From Anaerolineae bacterium (lineage in GTDB: Bacteria; Chloroflexota; Anaerolineae; SpSt-600): DNA of 35,951 nt. The position numbers and the translations under genes were made by a program. This document shows positions 5,420-13,235 of this stretch, piece after piece (position 1 is the first letter of the stretch; each line of letters opens with the position of its first letter). Where the stretch lies: positions 1 to 35,951 of the forward strand of contig DAOUBN010000053.1 in the NCBI GenBank assembly GCA_034432815.1, in the 5' to 3' direction. A model generated the notes under the pieces. That model saw only the letters and a program-made list of their open reading frames with translations, did no database searches and had not been told where the DNA came from.

Positions 5420-8400
5420 TTATGTTCTCCGCATGAAGCGGGGGAGGATGGTGGCCCATTCGGGCAGGGGGACGCTGTCCCCGGGGCCAAGTTTGTCCAC
5501 AGGCTTCACCTCCCGCTGGCGGGCACGGCCCGCAAATATCCCTATCTGACTGCCTTCCCGGGCGTGGCGCCTGTCCACAAGAGCCATGCCGGTGAGGAAG
5601 CCTTCCGTGTCAATGGCGCAGGAGGTCACCACCCCGATGTAGTCCCCCCGCTGGTTGACTACAGGATCACCGGGCTCAGGCCTGGGAACGCCCTTGCGGT
5701 TCATCCGGAAGCGGATTATCTCCCGGGTCCGCCTGGCTTCTTTCTCTATGATGGCCTTCCGCCCGATGAAGTAGGGCTTGTGGAATTTGACGTAAGGGGC
5801 GAAACCCGCCTCTATCGGGTCTATGTTGAAGGGGCCTGCCAGTTCGTGGCCGTAAAGCGGCAGACCCGCTTCCGTCCGGGTTGAATCCCTGGCCCCGAGG
5901 CCCGCCGGCTTTATGCCGAAAGGCTTCCCCTTCTCCAGGAGCAGGTTCCACAGGCGAGGGGCATCGTCGGGGTGGACGAAGATCTCGTAGCCCCACTCCT
6001 CGCCGGTGTAACCCGTGCGGGCCACGATCACGTCCATCCCGTCCAGGGTCATTTCGGCCAGCTCTGTGCGGCGCATCCTCTTCAGGATCTCCCTGCCATC
6101 ACGATCGGCCAGGGACATGAGAATGTGGATTGAGGCCGGCCCCTGAAGGGCCATGTCCACCCTCATGTCTTTGCCGGAAGAGGGATCCTTGAGGTTCCGG
6201 AGGATGGCCTGCCCGTCCACTTCCTTAGCCGGGTTCTCCCTGTCCACGATAACCCGGCGGGAGTTAACGGCGTTCAGCCAGGCCCAGTCCTTCTCCTCAT
6301 TGGCGGCATTGACCACCATTATGTAGCGATCGCGGCGGATCCGGTAAATCATAACGTCGTCTATGACGTTGCCGTCAGGGTCAAGCAGGTAGGAGTAGAG
6401 GGACTGGCCGTCCTCAAGCCAGCGGACGTAGTTGGTGGTGACGAAGTCAAGGAAGCGGGTGGCATGTTCCCCGGAGATTTCAAATACTCCCATGTGGGCC
6501 ACGTCAAACAGGCCCGCGGCTTCCCGCACTGCCCTGTGCTCCTCAAGCACGCCTGTATACCAGACAGGCATTTCCCATCCGGCGAAGGGGATGAGTTTGG
6601 CCCCAAGCTTGCGGTGTTCTTCGTAGAGGGGGGTGTGCTTGAGAGGGCCTGGCTTTTCCTCCCAGCGGAACTCTTCCTTCTGGACGGGAGGCCTCTCTGA
6701 GGCCAGGAATTTTTCCCCCACAAAGTAGGGCTTGGAGAGGGCGAAGAGGTCCCTGTGGTTGCTCCGGTAGAGGGTGAGGGCATCGGGCCTTTCCCCGTCG
6801 TAAGAGGGCCAGTCGGCTCCGGAGCGCCAGGATCTGTAGGCCTGAGGCGAGGATGGCTGGAAGCCGTTCTGGCGCAGGATCCCCCAGAGCCGGGCGATGT
6901 TGTCGGGATGGGATATAAGCATCAGGAGTTCGCATCCGTTGCCGTAGTCCACCCTGGCGGCCAGCGTCTCCACTCCGTCCACCTGACCGGCCCAGAACCG
7001 GTTCAGGGGCATCTCGGGGAGCCAGGGCAAAAGGCCTTTGAGCCGGGAAACGGCTTCTTTCCCCGCCACTCCTATGGCCACTTTCCTCCAGGGTTCCTCC
7101 ATATCCTCCCACAGATCCTCCACGATGACAGGCCCTTCAACTTTGGCCAGGATGTCCTGGCGGTCAAAGATCGTGTAGCCATCGGACAGGGCCCGGAACC
7201 AGTCCTTAACCCTTTCGGTGTTTTCGGGGTTGGTGACAACCAGGTATTGCTGGCGGCCCCGGCTGTCGTCGGGAAGGCGGAGGATGGAGACATCGTCCAG
7301 GAGTTTGCCGTCGGCGTCCAGGAGGAAGGAGCGGGCTGCCATCCCCGGCCTGAGGTCGGCCAGGTTGGCGGTGTTGACCTGCTGGATGAAGGCTTCGGCC
7401 CTTGAGCCTCTGACCACAAGGAGGCCGAGGCTGGTCAGGTCAAAGAGGAAGGGCCCCTCGCCGGCGGGGATGGCTTTCTCCTCAAAGAGGGGCTTGCGGA
7501 CGGGCTCCTTTCCGGGCAGGAAGCAGTAGTGGGGGTAGCCGGTCCGGCAGGGGGGCGGGCAGATAGGGATGCGGTCAATCAGTTCGTCCACGCGGCAAGC
7601 AGCTTTCTTGAGGATCTCCAACTCTATCTTGCCCCTGGGCAATTCGTGGTCGCGGCCGTAATAGCGGAAGGGCTTGATGTTGACCAGGACTTCGGTCATG
7701 ATATCGGCTATCTCATCCATCTCTTCGGCGTCAAGGCCCCTCTGGGTCACCCACGGGGTCCCGAGGCGTATCCCGCTGGCCAGGGGGGTCATGGTGTCGC
7801 CGGGAATTGTGTTCTTGTTGACGATGATGCCGGCTATGTCCAGGAGTCTGGCGGCAATTTCCCCCTTCACCGGGTAGCCGGTATCGGTCCTGATTGACCT
7901 GAGGTCCAGGACCACCATGTGGGTATTGGTCCCGCCGTAGGCTACTTTTATCCCCCTCTTCTGGAAGGCCTCGGCGAGGGCTTTTGCGTTCTCCACGATT
8001 TTATACTGGATGCGCTTGAAGGTTTCGGTCTGGGCGATCTTGAAGGCCACGGCTATGGCGGCGAACTTGTTGACGTGGGGGCCTCCCTGGATTCCCGGGA
8101 AGACGGCGGCGTCAATGCGCTGGGCGAGCTCCTCGTCTGTGGTGATGATGACGGCTCCCCTGGGGCCGCATATGGTCTTGTGGGTGGTGAAGGTTATGAC
8201 GTCAGCGATGCCGATGGGGGAGGGGTGGGCGCCGGCCACCACAAGGCCTGCGGTGTGGGCGATATCGGCCATGAGGTAGGCTCCCACGGCATCGGCTATC
8301 TCCCGGAACTTCTCCCAGTCGGGTGCCCAGGAGTAGGAGGTGTAGCCAGCTATTATGAGGCGCGGCCTGTATTCCAGGGCCAGCTTCATAATCTGGTTGT

Positions 8401-8992
8401 AATTGAGGCGCTCGGTGGCGGGGTCAACTCCGTAGGAGACGACTTTGTAGCGGCGGCCGGAGATGTTGAACTCGCTTCCGTGGGTGAGGTGGCCCCCCTG
8501 GAAGAGGTCCATCCCCATTATGGTATCGCCGGGGTTGAGGAGAGCATCATATACGGCGATGTTGGCGGCGGCGCCGGAGAGGGGCTGGACGTTGACGAAG
8601 ATCCGCTCCGGGGGCACCCTTTCGTTGGCGAAGGCCTGGGCAATCCTGCGCTGGGCGAGGGTTTCCACAAAGTGGACGTATTCAACCCCTTTGTAGAACC
8701 GCCTGTCGCCGTAGCGCCGGTAGTGGCTGAGCTGGTGGGCGAAGTCCATCACAAGCTCCATCTCTTCCCTGGTCATCCTCAGGGGAGGGTAGCCTTCGGC
8801 GTAGATGTTGTTGAAGACGGAGCCCAGGGCTTTGAGGACGGGTTCGGGGGCTATGCTCTCGGAGGGTATCAGGATGATCTTGCGGGCCTGTTTTTCCTCC
8901 TCAAAGCGGATGAGGCGGTCTATCTCCGGGTCAATGGCCGAGAGTTCCCCTTCAAGGATCGCACGGTATTCCTGAGCGAGCTTCAGGTCCAT
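5420..8992 (-). CDS. Fusion protein: serine hydroxymethyltransferase + GcvT-like domain + aminomethyltransferase (GcvT)
   Basis: aa 1-~475 are SHMT-like (SESIAPEPVLKALGSVF.NIYAEGYP, GGHLTHGS, PLP-lysine motif TTHKTICGPRG). aa ~505-780 are a degenerate GcvT/YgfZ-like fold (LLVVRGSRAEAFIQ..LLDADGKLLDDV). aa ~785-1190 are a full GcvT (TPLYEEHRKLGAKLIPFAGWEMPVWY..EEHRAVREAAGLFDVAHMG..ARTGYTGEEWGYEIF..ARDSTRTEAGLPLYGHEL). RBS AAGGAGGGGG precedes the ATG. Confidence 0.85.
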   Translation of the reverse strand: MDLKLAQEYRAILEGELSAIDPEIDRLIRFEEEKQARKIILIPSESIAPEPVLKALGSVFNNIYAEGYPPLRMTREEMELVMDFAHQLSHYRRYGDRRFYKGVEYVHFVETLAQRRIAQAFANERVPPERIFVNVQPLSGAAANIAVYDALLNPGDTIMGMDLFQGGHLTHGSEFNISGRRYKVVSYGVDPATERLNYNQIMKLALEYRPRLIIAGYTSYSWAPDWEKFREIADAVGAYLMADIAHTAGLVVAGAHPSPIGIADVITFTTHKTICGPRGAVIITTDEELAQRIDAAVFPGIQGGPHVNKFAAIAVAFKIAQTETFKRIQYKIVENAKALAEAFQKRGIKVAYGGTNTHMVVLDLRSIRTDTGYPVKGEIAARLLDIAGIIVNKNTIPGDTMTPLASGIRLGTPWVTQRGLDAEEMDEIADIMTEVLVNIKPFRYYGRDHELPRGKIELEILKKAACRVDELIDRIPICPPPCRTGYPHYCFLPGKEPVRKPLFEEKAIPAGEGPFLFDLTSLGLLVVRGSRAEAFIQQVNTANLADLRPGMAARSFLLDADGKLLDDVSILRLPDDSRGRQQYLVVTNPENTERVKDWFRALSDGYTIFDRQDILAKVEGPVIVEDLWEDMEEPWRKVAIGVAGKEAVSRLKGLLPWLPEMPLNRFWAGQVDGVETLAARVDYGNGCELLMLISHPDNIARLWGILRQNGFQPSSPQAYRSWRSGADWPSYDGERPDALTLYRSNHRDLFALSKPYFVGEKFLASERPPVQKEEFRWEEKPGPLKHTPLYEEHRKLGAKLIPFAGWEMPVWYTGVLEEHRAVREAAGLFDVAHMGVFEISGEHATRFLDFVTTNYVRWLEDGQSLYSYLLDPDGNVIDDVMIYRIRRDRYIMVVNAANEEKDWAWLNAVNSRRVIVDRENPAKEVDGQAILRNLKDPSSGKDMRVDMALQGPASIHILMSLADRDGREILKRMRRTELAEMTLDGMDVIVARTGYTGEEWGYEIFVHPDDAPRLWNLLLEKGKPFGIKPAGLGARDSTRTEAGLPLYGHELAGPFNIDPIEAGFAPYVKFHKPYFIGRKAIIEKEARRTREIIRFRMNRKGVPRPEPGDPVVNQRGDYIGVVTSCAIDTEGFLTGMALVDRRHAREGSQIGIFAGRARQREVKPVDKLGPGDSVPLPEWATILPRFMRRT

Positions 8993-9004
8993 ATCCCCCT
9001 CCTT

Positions 9005-12000
9005 TTAGCGATTCATTTTACCAATTGCAGGCACTTCGGCGCTCTTTGGCTTTTTGCTTTCCAGGACTTTCTCTATTTCCGGGACGTTCTCTCCGAGGAG
9101 GCGGCGCAGTTCAAAGATTTCGTCGCGCAACATGGCCGCTTTTTCAAATTCCAGGTTCTTTGCGGCGATGTGCATCTGGTTCTCCAGTTCCTTTATCATG
9201 CGCCTGATTTCGTCCTTAGGGATTTCCTCACCCCGCACGATGTATTCGGCTTTGCGCTCCGCCACTTTCCGGACTCTGTCTGTGAGGTCGCGCACCTCTT
9301 TGACGATGCTGCGGGGCTCAATGCCGTGGCGCAGGTTGTATTCCATCTGGATGCGGCGGCGGCGCTCGGTCTCTTCTATGGCCCGGCGCATGGATTCGGT
9401 GATGGTGTCGGCATACATTATGGCGGTGCCTTCCACGTGCCTTGCCGCCCGCCCAATGGTCTGGATGAGGGCGGTCTCGGACCGCAGGAAGCCTTCTTTA
9501 TCGGCGTCCAGGATGGCCACCAGGGAGACTTCGGGCAGGTCCAGGCCCTCCCGCAGGAGGTTTATCCCCACCACCACGTCGTAGACGCCAAGGCGCAAGT
9601 TGCGCAGTATCTCCACCCGCTCAATGGTGTCAATTTCCGAGTGGAGGTAATGCACCTTGATGCCCATCTCGGCGAGATACTCGGCCAGGTCCTCGGCCAT
9701 CCTCTTGGTGAGGGTAGTGACCAGGGCCCGCTGCCCCTTTTCCACCCGCTTGCGGATTTCGGAGATGAGGTCATCAATCTGGCCCTTAGTGGGGCGCACC
9801 TCCACCTTCGGGTCCACGATTCCGGTGGGCCTTATAAGTTGCTCCACGACCTGTTCGCTCTTTTCCAGTTCGTAAGGGCCTGGGGTGGCGGAGGTGAAGA
9901 TGACCTGGCGCACCCGCTGCTCAAATTCCTCAAACTTGAGGGGCCTGTTGTCCAGGGCCGATGGCAGGCGGAAGCCGTAGTCCACCAGGGTTTTCTTGCG
10001 GGTGTAATCTCCGTGATACATCCCCCTGAGCTGGGGTATGGTCATGTGGGATTCGTCTATTATGACCAGGAAATCGTCGGGGAAGTAATCCAGGAGGGTC
10101 CAGGGGGGTTCTCCAGGCTTGCGGCGGGAGAGGTGGCGGGAGTAGTTTTCAATGCCGGGGCAGTAGCCTGTGGTCTTCAGGAGCTCCAGGTCGTAGCGGG
10201 TGCGCTGCTCAAGGCGCTGGGCCTCCAGGAGCTTCCCCTGAGCTCTGAGTTCCGCCAGCCTCTCCTCCAGTTCCTGCTCTATGTCCCTTATGGCCAGCTG
10301 GAGCTTTTCGTAAGGGGTGATGAAGTGCTTTGCCGGGTAAATGGCTACGGAGTCCAGCTCCCTGAGGATCTCGCCGGTGAGGGGGTCAAATTCGGTTATG
10401 CGCTCTATTTCATCGCCCCAGAATTCAATGCGGTAGGCAGTCTGGAGGTAGGCGGGCTGGACTTCCACGGTGTCTCCCCGGACCCGGAACCTCCCCCTTT
10501 CCAGGACGGTGTCGTTTCTCTCATACTGGATTTCCACCAGGTGGCGGAGGATTTTGTTGCGGCGGCGGACTTCGCCACGCCTGAGGGTTAGCACCACCTG
10601 GCCGTAGTCCTCGGGGCTTCCGAGGCCGTAGATGCAGGATACCGATGCCACGATGATGACGTCCCGGCGGGAGAAGAGGGCGGATGTAGCGGCCAGGCGC
10701 AGGCGGTCAATCTCCTCATTGATGTCGGCGTCCTTCTCTATGTAGAGGTCGTATTCGGGCAGGTAGGCTTCGGGCTGGTAGTAGTCGTAGTAGCTCACGA
10801 AGTATTCAACGGCATTGTGAGGGAAGAATTCCCGGAATTCGGCGTAGAGCTGAGCGGCCAGGGTCTTGTTGTGGGCGATGACGAGGGTTGGCTTCTGGAC
10901 CTGTTCAATGACTTTGGCCATGACGAAGGTGTTGTGCACAAAGAGCCCTCCCGCACCGGCTAAGAAGGTTTCATTCCCGGCCACGCTCAGGTCGTAAACG
11001 TAAGGCGAGGAAGCGCTTGCCGGCTCAACGCTGGCCACCGGCGACCAGCGGACCTTCAGGCGGCTCTGGAGTTTTCTCCAGCCTTCCCACCACTTTTCAT
11101 CTTCGTGATGCCTGGCCCCGGCTATTTCGCTTAAGGCTTCAAGAAGGCGCTGGAAGCTGGCGCGGGATGGGTTCCGGACCTGGCATTCAATCGCCGAGAC
11201 CAGCTTCTGGCTGACGCCTGCTGCTTGAGCCAGGAGTTTTTGGCTGACGCCCAGAGCCAGCCGCAGGTCCCGAAGGGAGCTCCCGACATCCGGGATTATG
11301 TCTACGCTGGAATTGGCCTTTCTGGCGATTTCCTGTTCCAGAGCCTCTGCTTTTCCGGCAAGGGAGAACCCGATGTGCTGATGGAAGGCGCGCAGGTTTT
11401 CCTGGCCAGATATGCTCACCTTCCAGTACCAGTCGCCCGGGTGATTGCCGTTGGTTGCCCGCTTGCGCACGCGCTGAATGCGAGCCCAGATGCCGAAGCG
11501 CAACAGCGCATAGGCCAGTTCGTAAGCCAGGCGCTGGCTGGCCGTGGTCACGGTCACGCATCCTTTATCACGCTCAACCGTCCCATCGCCATCAAAGTAG
11601 GCTTGCAGGAGTATGGCCAGCTGACGGTTGGACAGTTGAGGCCAGAAAGGAGGCAGGTGCTTCTCGCGAGCCACCCGGCCTGCCAGGCGGGCAAACAGCC
11701 GGGCAAGGGGAGCCGATGAGATCTGGAAATCGCTTGAGGGTCGGATTGTGAAGCGGAGCCCCAGTTCTGTCAGGCTTTCCGCGATGTGTTCCCTCAGTTG
11801 AGGGGAGCGGTTGGCCAGGATGAGGTGATTCCCTTTGGCCGTCGCCGTCCCTTCGGCCAGGTAACAGCCAAGCAGCCTCAGGAAAGCATCAGTAAGGCGC
11901 AATTCCAGGGGCAACCCTGAGCGCTCTAACCTGCCGGCCACATGAGCCTGCTCCGGGTGCCAGGTTCCCTGAAAGCTCTCCGTTGCCTCTGGACAGGAGT

Positions 12001-12670
12001 AATGAGGGGCGAGGAGGGCGGTGAATTCCTGCCCGCCCCTCGCCGCGATGTATTCGGCAATTTGTTGACGGGCTTGGATGAACAGGCCTGCGTCCTGCAG
12101 GTAATCCAGCAGGTTCAGGTCTGGAAGGTCCTGCGCAGGGGCAGGAATGCTGAGGGGGATGGGTATGTAATCCCCGGGGCGAATTTCGGTGGTAGGAAGC
12201 AAGTGCATCTGTCCGTCCCGGAGCACCCAGAGGTTGTGGTCTCCGGTGATGACCGCGCTTCTGCCGCATTTCAGGGTCACCCGGAACATCCGCTCGGGGG
12301 CGCGATGCCGGATGAAAGCCATAATGGGTTTCGGTTCCACCTCGCCTGTGCGGGCGTTGAAGCTCAAAGTCCAGTATGAGCCGGGTTCAGGGCGCGCCAC
12401 CACCGTGTCGCCGTAGTGTTCCACTCTGGAGGCTCTTTTTATCGCAGCTTCAATAAGTTCCCCGATAGGGACAAGCTCAAAGCGGAAGCCATCGCTCTCC
12501 TTCCGGGCGATGAAGACGGGCTCGGCGCCGTCCAGGCTCTTGCCGGTGCCCGTGGCTCCCAGCAGGGTCTGGTAGCGGTATCCTTTGCGGATACCTTCTA
12601 CCAGTTTTTCTATGGCCTGGGGCTGGTCGCCTGTGGGTTTGAAGGGGGAGACGAGTTTAAACCTTTCCAT
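9005..12670 (-). CDS. uvrB: Excinuclease ABC subunit B (UvrB), interrupted by an intein
   Basis: [38 protein letters not shown]|...|[25 protein letters not shown], helicase motifs and a C-terminal UVR motif ([17 protein letters not shown]). Start set at ATG 12670. The track's 56-codon extension to 12838 is translated repeat DNA. Confidence 0.9.
10931..12538 (-). mobile_element. Intein (536 aa, Ser1...His-Asn / Thr+1) with LAGLIDADG homing-endonuclease and HTH regions, inserted in the UvrB Walker A motif
   Basis: It begins SLDGAEPVF directly after GATGTGK and ends GGLFVHN directly before TFVMAKV. Block B is [18 protein letters not shown] motifs are [11 protein letters not shown] and [15 protein letters not shown]-like HTH is [25 protein letters not shown]. 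Block F is [12 protein letters not shown]. Length is 1608 nt, in frame. Confidence 0.85.
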
Positions 12671-13235
12671 TTTTGTTTCCCCACCCTCGTGGGCTCGGGG
12701 TTCGCCATGGTTCAGGATCCCACTCGTGGGCAAGTTGCGGGAGTTGCCTTCTCGCTCCTTTGATTGGTTTTTCTGGGGGCACATCCCCCATACCCCCTGG
12801 CATGGGGCTTTGCACCCTGCACCCCCGATTTTCCCCACCCTCGTTTGCTCTGGGTTTGCCCACGTTCAGAGTCCCACTCGTGGGCGGGTTGCGGGAGTTG
12901 CCCCCTCGCCCCTTGATTTGTTTTCCTGGGGGGACACCCCCCAGACCCCCCGGGAGGGGGCTCGCCCCCTCCAACCCCTTGAGGTTGTTTTCCCGGGGGC
13001 ACATCCCCCATACCCCCAGCATGGGGGCTTCGCCCCCCCTGCACCCCTCTTTCCCCACCCTCGTTTGCTCAGGGTTCGCTGGGCTTCAGGGGCCCCCTCG
13101 TAGCCAGGTTGCAGGAGTTTCCCGCTCGCCCCTTGATTTGTTTTCCTGGGAGGACACCCCCCAGACCCCCGGGAGGGGGCTCGCCCCCTCCACCCCCATT
13201 TTGGGGACACCCCCCAGGCCCCCCGCCAGGGGGTT
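12671..13235. repeat. Mosaic A/B interspersed-repeat cluster 2 (three same-orientation A1+B units)
   Basis: A1 copies at 12679-12758, 12833-12912 and 13053-13132, each followed by 1-2 B modules (e.g. 12928-12978). Confidence 0.85.

Follow-up and report, generated by a model that had tools for sequence, protein, structure and literature searches.

Organization of the uvrB locus

The window analyzed in this study is the whole stretch of 35,951 nucleotides (nt) that covers positions 1 to 35,951 of contig DAOUBN010000053.1, from the genome assembly of an Anaerolineae bacterium (GCA_034432815.1; phylum Chloroflexota). Its uvrB gene lies on the minus strand and runs from an ATG at 12670-12668 to a stop codon at 9007-9005. 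This open reading frame (ORF) encodes 1221 amino acids (aa) and contains an insert of 536 codons that splits the ATP-binding Walker A loop of UvrB and has the hallmarks of an intein. The longest frame at the locus is 1277 aa and starts at a GTG at 12838, but since all congeners begin with MERFKLV or MEKFKLV, the ATG at 12670-12668 is the uvrB start. The source genome contains one copy of uvrB.

The N-extein (12539..12670, minus strand) comprises 44 codons counted from the ATG and ends with the Walker A residues GATGTGK. Its last 40 residues are identical to the N-termini of UvrB in most congeners. The insert corresponds to residues 45-580 of the 1221-aa protein (12538-10931, minus strand) and is located between Lys44 and Thr45 in the Walker A motif of UvrB. 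It begins with SLDGAEPVF, of which the serine is Ser1, terminates with GLFVHN (His535-Asn536) and is followed by Thr+1 of TFVMA. The C-extein (9005..10930, minus strand; 641 codons and the stop codon) starts with this Thr+1, which is the Walker A threonine itself. Excision of the insert in silico yields a UvrB of 685 aa with the sequence LLGATGTGK/TFVMAK (here and below, the slash marks the junction) and a whole Walker A motif (GATGTGKT). A sequence-only reading of the window had already placed an insert of 536 aa at 10931-12538 in an ORF of 1221 aa, and these values and the motifs it quoted are all exact. Both UvrB models recognize the protein well above their cut-offs: the equivalog NF003673 scores 1067.9 bits (cut-off 743) over two stretches that flank the insert, and TIGR00631 scores 1055.8 bits (cut-off 750.1). 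The guanine plus cytosine (G+C) content is flat across the intein/extein junctions (0.58-0.62).

Two further observations were made around the gene. An open frame of 890 aa is located on the plus strand (window 7919-10591), antisense to uvrB and to the upstream gene. Its translation is rich in Gly, Val and Ala, and it looks like a by-product of G+C-rich coding on the opposite strand rather than a gene. In addition, the entire gap between the glyQS stop codon and the uvrB start (window 12671-13235) consists of G+C-rich repeated sequence, and the six-frame list of ORFs shows the same peptide-like strings three times in this interval.

Domain organization and splicing residues of the insert

The insert matches profiles of all three parts expected from the sequence-only reading, which had described a large intein that contains a LAGLIDADG endonuclease together with an XRE-like helix-turn-helix (HTH) segment. 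Pfam Intein_splicing (PF14890) scores 54.4 bits against a cut-off of 35.8, LAGLIDADG_3 (PF14528) scores 77.7 bits against 22.5 in two stretches, and HTH_3 (PF01381) scores 30.6 bits against 23 (3.5e-7), while HTH_31 (PF13560) remains marginally under its cut-off (26.8 bits versus 27; 6.7e-6). The terminal halves are recognized by TIGR01445 (30.1 bits, cut-off 24.5) and TIGR01443 (24.1 bits, cut-off 15.6). These scores are far above chance expectation. The other NCBIfam models that match the insert represent proteins of archaea and bacteria that carry inteins (RNA polymerase A'', RFC, IF-2, DnaB, PolII, and GyrA). Alignment to Hint-domain and LAGLIDADG profiles had been suggested as a check, with degenerate catalytic residues as the outcome that would speak against an intein; the scores lie above the curated cut-offs and the catalytic residues are not degenerate.

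An AlphaFold2 model of the window intein, built on 47 allelic sequences, has a predicted local distance difference test (pLDDT) value of 92.4 and a predicted template modelling (pTM) score of 0.92. It divides the intein into five segments, all encoded on the minus strand. The N-terminal half of the HINT domain (HINT-N; residues ~1-135; 12134..12538) is beta-rich and coincides with the TIGR01445 match. It is followed by a helical segment (residues 136-212; 11903..12133), the LAGLIDADG homing endonuclease domain (residues 213-405; 11324..11902), an HTH module with a long connecting helix (residues 406-495; 11054..11323), and the HINT domain's C-terminal portion (HINT-C; residues 496-536; 10931..11053), which coincides with the TIGR01443 match. 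The model and the Foldseek matches together give the HINT horseshoe fold, interrupted by the endonuclease at the canonical site. Among the structures in the PDB, Foldseek retrieves PI-TkoII (2cw7; E 9e-28, template modelling scores TM 0.67/0.68) and TliVMA (7qss; E 5e-25, TMt 0.80), and further PI-PfuI (1dq3), PhoVMA, PI-SceI, the mini-inteins 5o9i, 4e2t, and 6rpp, the endonucleases I-DmoI and I-Tsp061I, and WhiA. PI-PkoII, another name of PI-TkoII, is also the top match in the PDB by sequence (3.6e-23).

The residues required for splicing are in place. Alignments of 47, 9, and 34 UvrB alleles show no variation at S1 (12536-12538), H78, T98, H101, D516, H535, N536, or Thr+1. T98 and H101 belong to block B (T98-x-x-H101, here T98-G-D-H101; 12236-12247, within HINT-N), D516 to block F (VYDLSV), and H535 and N536 to block G (LFVHN), whose C-terminal residues are again invariant in the alignments. 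About 20 residues before block B lies the dipeptide R77-H78 (12305-12310), in which H78 never varies (47/47 alleles) and R77 is conserved to at least 90%. R77-H78 aligns with the R-H of PI-PkoII and MjaTFIIB. Pasch et al. (2023; PMC10189870) showed that an additional histidine after Arg or Lys, the NX motif, is present in class-1 inteins that combine Ser1 with Ser/Thr+1, and this histidine was needed for splicing in all three Ser1 inteins that were mutated. The Ser1/Ser+1(Thr+1) set of that study counts 58 InBase inteins from 16 alleles, so that the Ser1/Thr+1 pair of the window intein represents a known minority chemistry with its signature NX motif complete. This bears out the sequence-only reading, which had called a Ser1/Thr+1 pair without a cysteine at either junction a less common chemistry. 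Thr+1 is dictated by the insertion site, since it is the Walker A threonine.

We therefore identify the insert with high confidence as a class-1 intein of the Ser1/Thr+1 oxyester subgroup, with a nested LAGLIDADG endonuclease and an XRE-type HTH domain, located in the Walker A motif of the sole uvrB. Profiles, residues, structural model, and fold matches all agree on this identification.

Endonuclease and HTH accessory domain

The endonuclease domain is detected by Pfam LAGLIDADG_3 in two stretches (8.2e-22), and its fold matches those of I-DmoI, I-Tsp061I, and PI-PfuI. The two catalytic acidic residues are E229 (11852-11854), within the LAGLIDADG helix LLGCYLAEG, and D318 (11585-11587) in the second LAGLIDADG helix. 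Both are invariant or at least 90% conserved among the UvrB alleles, the exceptions being alleles with large deletions.

The accessory domain between the endonuclease and HINT-C, which is predicted to bind DNA, contains an XRE/Cro-type HTH, which forms four helices in the model (residues 419-475). The Pfam HTH_3 match covers residues 422-469 (11132-11275), and the HTH alone matches the controller protein C.AhdI (1y7y) among PDB sequences. Beyer and Iwai (2022; PMC8966425) describe accessory domains between the endonuclease and HINT-C for TliVMA, PhoVMA, PI-PfuI, and PI-TkoII. In TliVMA and PI-TkoII, these domains are similar to HTH regulators and modulate the cleavage of DNA. The HTH of the window intein occupies exactly the position of the TliVMA and PI-TkoII accessory domains. 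HTH_3 or HTH_31 was detected in 32/34 UvrB alleles, so the HTH is a feature of the UvrB intein family and no peculiarity of the window copy.

The sequence-only reading had seen an internal duplication in the HTH, in the form of two GVSQKL hexapeptides (residues 430-435 and 441-446; 11234-11251 and 11201-11218) that are identical in 16/18 nt. We reject this duplication. The hexapeptides open helices 2 and 3 of an HTH_3 domain of normal length, and homologs align through the region gap-free with the common pattern G-[LV]-S ... G-x-S-[RQ]; there is no insertion and no extra length, and the repeat represents the usual start of helices 2 and 3. The resemblance probably arose by chance or through a small gene conversion.

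Distribution of the UvrB intein and its mobility

We searched about 5.8 billion proteins and examined the best 120 matches for their junctions. The search returned 8000 matches, which is not a count of UvrB inteins, since the query also contained 56 residues of the C-extein and matches other inteins too. In 101 of the best 120 matches both junctions were resolved, and all 101 read G[AV]TG[ST]GK/S ... HN/T. The UvrB proteins among these 120 are about 1220-1290 aa long. Named sources of the matches include Anaerolineae, Chloroflexia, Rhodothermales (Salisaeta longa, Salinibacter), and Gammaproteobacteria. In addition, 185,579 species genomes were scanned by pattern, which yielded 188 relatives. 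Eighty of these were examined, of which 76 have a match at the P-loop junction, and 75 of the 76 show a clean GK/S ... HN/T at the same UvrB site. The hosts belong to Chloroflexota, Bacteroidota/Rhodothermota, Pseudomonadota (mostly Steroidobacteraceae), Cyanobacteriota, several lineages of Patescibacteria, Omnitrophota, Planctomycetota, and Bipolaricaulota. Members of at least eight phyla thus carry the UvrB P-loop intein. A maximum-likelihood tree unites the Pseudomonadota alleles in a single clade; those of the Chloroflexota require at least three origins. The window allele has a long branch and groups with three alleles of Thermoflexales and Anaerolineales type (support 99/88).

The close relatives of the source species lack the intein. 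A comparison with intein-free uvrB alleles of relatives, as had been proposed from the sequence alone, was made with 40 genomes (seven from the same genus, one from the same family, and 32 from the same class), and the intein allele is found in none of them. The gene is uninterrupted in 39 of the 40, comprising all seven congeners, 31 of the 32 genomes of the same class, and the genome of the same family (in which the match begins at residue 44); the remaining genome is 75% complete and has no uvrB match. The spliced UvrB is 94-96% identical to that of the seven congeners at the protein level and 82-88% at the DNA level. Across the phylum, only 5 of 400 additional Chloroflexota genomes (~1%) contain a match at E<=1e-40. 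As read from these sequences, the pattern is that of a mobile homing intein which was acquired in the lineage of the source species and occurs sporadically. There is no compositional sign of a recent arrival, the G+C content being even across intein and exteins.

Within the 80 residues that flank the insert, differences between the window and its congeners are confined to positions +2, +4, and +6 of the C-extein (window 10913-10930). Position +4 is Met in the window and Ile in 7/7 congeners, and position +6 is Lys instead of the Asn found in 6/7. In the clade to which the intein belongs, the exteins (TYVMAK, TYVMAA) share the Met at +4, and two of the three members share the Lys at +6. We tentatively regard the differences at +4 and +6 as either a short co-conversion tract or an adaptation of the extein to splicing.

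The comparison also revealed in-frame TGA codons in the uvrB genes of two genomes of the same class, two in G029:C14:91530-93560 and one in G037:C63:1663-3687. Both genes have 73-76% identity over their full length. The TGA codons could be the result of sequencing error, pseudogenisation, or recoding.

The source genome contains a second intein, in FtsH (ORF of 996 aa; L104:3092-6082, contig C307, plus strand). It lies within the AAA+ module, between ...NVIVMAA and TNRPD, begins with Ser1 (SVTGDTPILI), ends with LLHN/Thr+1, and has the LAGLIDADG motifs LLGYYVAEG and LKGYFLGDG. Pfam detects Peptidase_M41, AAA, Intein_splicing, and LAGLIDADG_3 in this ORF, and no HTH.

A deletion ahead of the endonuclease in the window copy

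UvrB inteins are typically 553-564 aa long. The window copy has only 536 aa, owing to the loss of the 25 residues that occupy positions 186-210 in the full-length allele L094. The deletion junction lies between P183 and E184 (11989/11990, minus strand), in the segment that joins HINT-N to the endonuclease. The model of L094 (pLDDT 93.3) predicts with confidence a domain of five helices and about 95 residues at this place (L094:3001-4686, residues 142-241), for which no Pfam match was obtained. The deletion takes away helix 185-193 and the first part of helix 203-212 of L094. What is left in the window copy (residues 136-212) carries gaps peculiar to it and is the only low-confidence stretch of its model (pLDDT 53-67).

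The same region was deleted independently in L034, L079, L097, L103, and P0114, and larger deletions that begin at the same start remove LAGLIDADG helix 1 in L102 and P0055, so that at least seven alleles including that of the window are affected. Either the region ahead of the endonuclease is a module that can be dispensed with, or it is where endonuclease decay usually sets in. The sequence-only reading had taken the two LAGLIDADG motifs as evidence of an intact homing endonuclease. The endonuclease domain itself retains both acidic residues and deviates at just 1 of its 55 conserved columns. As 25 residues of the adjoining helical domain are lost, endonuclease activity is plausible rather than assured.

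Proposed mechanism and alternative explanations

By analogy with its family, we propose that the 1221-aa precursor is translated with a split ATP-binding loop and would not function as UvrB. The HINT domain would then catalyze an N-O acyl shift at Ser1, aided by Thr98 and His101 of block B and by His78 of the NX motif. The ester would move to the hydroxyl of Thr+1, the Walker A threonine, cyclisation of Asn536 would free the intein, and an O-N shift would remake the peptide bond, giving a UvrB of 685 aa with GATGTGKT. The freed intein would act as a site-specific endonuclease that cuts intein-free uvrB at the sequence encoding the P-loop, with the HTH contributing DNA contacts, and the cut allele would acquire the intein through repair of the double-strand break (homing). 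Splicing would have to occur in the source organism, because its genome has no second uvrB. Judged from the sequence, the window intein is very likely splicing-competent, while the chances that its endonuclease is active appear roughly even.

Several points weigh against reading the window copy as a mobile intein that still splices and homes. Its splicing and homing are deduced from the chemistry of the family. The closest allele among the matches listed shares just 54% identity with the window copy across the intein, too little to name a donor. The 60-nt sliding identity to the seven congeners shows no dip at the insertion site and no clear co-conversion tract at the DNA level. The 25-residue gap is unmatched in any other near-full-length allele. 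In a test over 116 columns with at least 90% conservation among 136 other alleles, the window copy deviates at 10, compared with a mean of 3.4 (standard deviation 3.6), and 9 alleles deviate equally or more. Some functional decay of this copy is therefore possible.

Such decay may have affected the endonuclease alone. The intein would then still splice with an impaired or dead endonuclease, and the window copy would represent a fixed, decaying stage of the homing cycle, kept since precise loss is rare and UvrB needs splicing. We consider this a realistic possibility, though not the probable one. It would account for the deletion found exclusively in the window copy, which removes one helix and part of the next directly beside the endonuclease and leaves a poorly predicted remnant there, for the recurrent loss of the same region in alleles that in L102 and P0055 extends into the first LAGLIDADG helix, and for a deviation at more conserved columns than in about 93% of the alleles. 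On the other hand, both catalytic acidic residues and 54/55 conserved columns are kept, and the HTH still scores above its Pfam cut-off. That alleles intact in other respects have repeatedly lost the helical domain could just as well show it to be dispensable, and VMA-b inteins have only an unstructured loop of 28-32 residues at this place. A failure of splicing itself, leaving uvrB inactive and nucleotide excision repair lost, is very improbable. Splicing of the window intein is a prediction, and this copy departs from the family somewhat more than average, but the frame of 1221 codons is open, all class-1 splicing residues are present, and the exteins of this sole uvrB are 94-96% identical to congener proteins that look functional. 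An equally slim chance is that an intein-bearing uvrB fragment of another organism in the metagenome was joined into the contig during assembly. The genome does consist of 355 contigs; such an artefact would, however, require that two joins fall exactly in frame, at the codon boundaries of the canonical site, and both flanks lead in frame into exteins that match the congeners, with an even G+C content throughout.

It is also unlikely, if somewhat less so, that the intein was co-opted by its host, with splicing and activation of UvrB cued by DNA binding of the HTH, by DNA damage, or by temperature, or with the excised intein acting as a transcription regulator. A split P-loop necessarily makes the precursor inactive, and the XRE-type DNA-binding domain is kept in 32/34 alleles. 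The fold search retrieves WhiA (3hyi), a LAGLIDADG-plus-HTH protein turned transcription factor, and conditional splicing has been documented in further P-loop inteins, for example that of RadA. HTH-like accessory domains are nevertheless a normal DNA-gripping part of homing inteins, absence from all 40 relatives and presence in ~1% of the phylum is the pattern of a selfish element and not of a retained regulator, and nothing specific speaks in favor of co-option. There is a correspondingly small chance that a host-serving role might keep the window copy intact despite its shortened pre-endonuclease domain. If co-option were true, nucleotide excision repair would be switched on only when needed, or the excised intein would be a sequence-specific regulator like WhiA.

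Comparison with known intein systems

No UvrB intein host was found in a full-text literature search. UvrB is likewise absent from the top-15 bacterial hosts in the accessible part of Novikova et al. (2016; PMC4760082), which include UvrD and RecG; minor hosts might be listed in the supplementary tables of that paper. The accessible part of Pasch et al. (2023) contains no mention of a UvrB allele. The sequence-only reading, which did not regard UvrB as a well-known intein host, was thus right about the searchable literature, but the allele is common in sequence databases. Public records label UvrB proteins of about 1230 aa only as ‘excinuclease ABC subunit UvrB’ or ‘helix-turn-helix domain-containing protein’, and the practical value of the finding lies in the annotation of these proteins. 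The UvrB P-loop intein leaves the general understanding of inteins unchanged. One intein-bearing species with seven congeners that have an empty site forms a natural comparison suited to questions of homing and of the pre-endonuclease domain. Since the UvrB family uses only oxygen nucleophiles (Ser1/Thr+1) together with the NX histidine, it is also a large natural source of cysteine-independent inteins, a type that protein engineers call rare and useful (PMC10189870).

The window intein shares Ser1, Thr+1, and the R77-H78 dipeptide with the NX-motif Ser1 inteins of Pasch et al. (2023). Despite this cysteine-independent chemistry, it is not free of cysteines (e.g., C91). Its location is also familiar. 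P-loops are well-documented preferred sites of inteins such as DnaB-b, MCM-a, RFC-a, and VMA-b, and in the DnaB example Thr occupies the +1 position of the insertion sites (Novikova et al., 2016; PMC4760082). The DnaB-b, MCM-a, RFC-a, RadA, and VMA-b inteins likewise reside in the Walker A loop of DNA-metabolism ATPases, in hosts other than UvrB. WhiA (DUF199; 3hyi; Foldseek E 1.8e-5) combines a LAGLIDADG fold with an HTH, but it is a free-standing transcription factor with neither a HINT domain nor the catalytic acidic residues, and we regard it as an architectural analogy only.

Two archaeal inteins come closest in architecture. The nearest solved relative by both sequence and fold is PI-TkoII, the second intein of the Thermococcus kodakarensis DNA polymerase. 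It resembles the window intein in Ser1, the HINT domain, the LAGLIDADG endonuclease, the HTH-like accessory domain ahead of HINT-C, and an extra domain. It differs in its archaeal origin, in its host, a family-B DNA polymerase without a P-loop site, and in its sequence, which is ~20% identical to that of the window intein. TliVMA, the VMA-b intein of the V-ATPase subunit A of Thermococcus litoralis (PMC8966425), shares the P-loop site, the layout of HINT, endonuclease, and accessory domain, and the HTH-like nature of the latter. Unlike the window intein, this archaeal intein has Cys1 and a length of 429 aa, and its pre-endonuclease linker is unstructured and 28-32 residues long, where the UvrB family has a helical domain of ~95 residues. 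Although searchable papers do not name UvrB as an intein host, the intein in the window is a textbook homing intein of the PI-TkoII/TliVMA architecture and an ordinary member of a widespread family.

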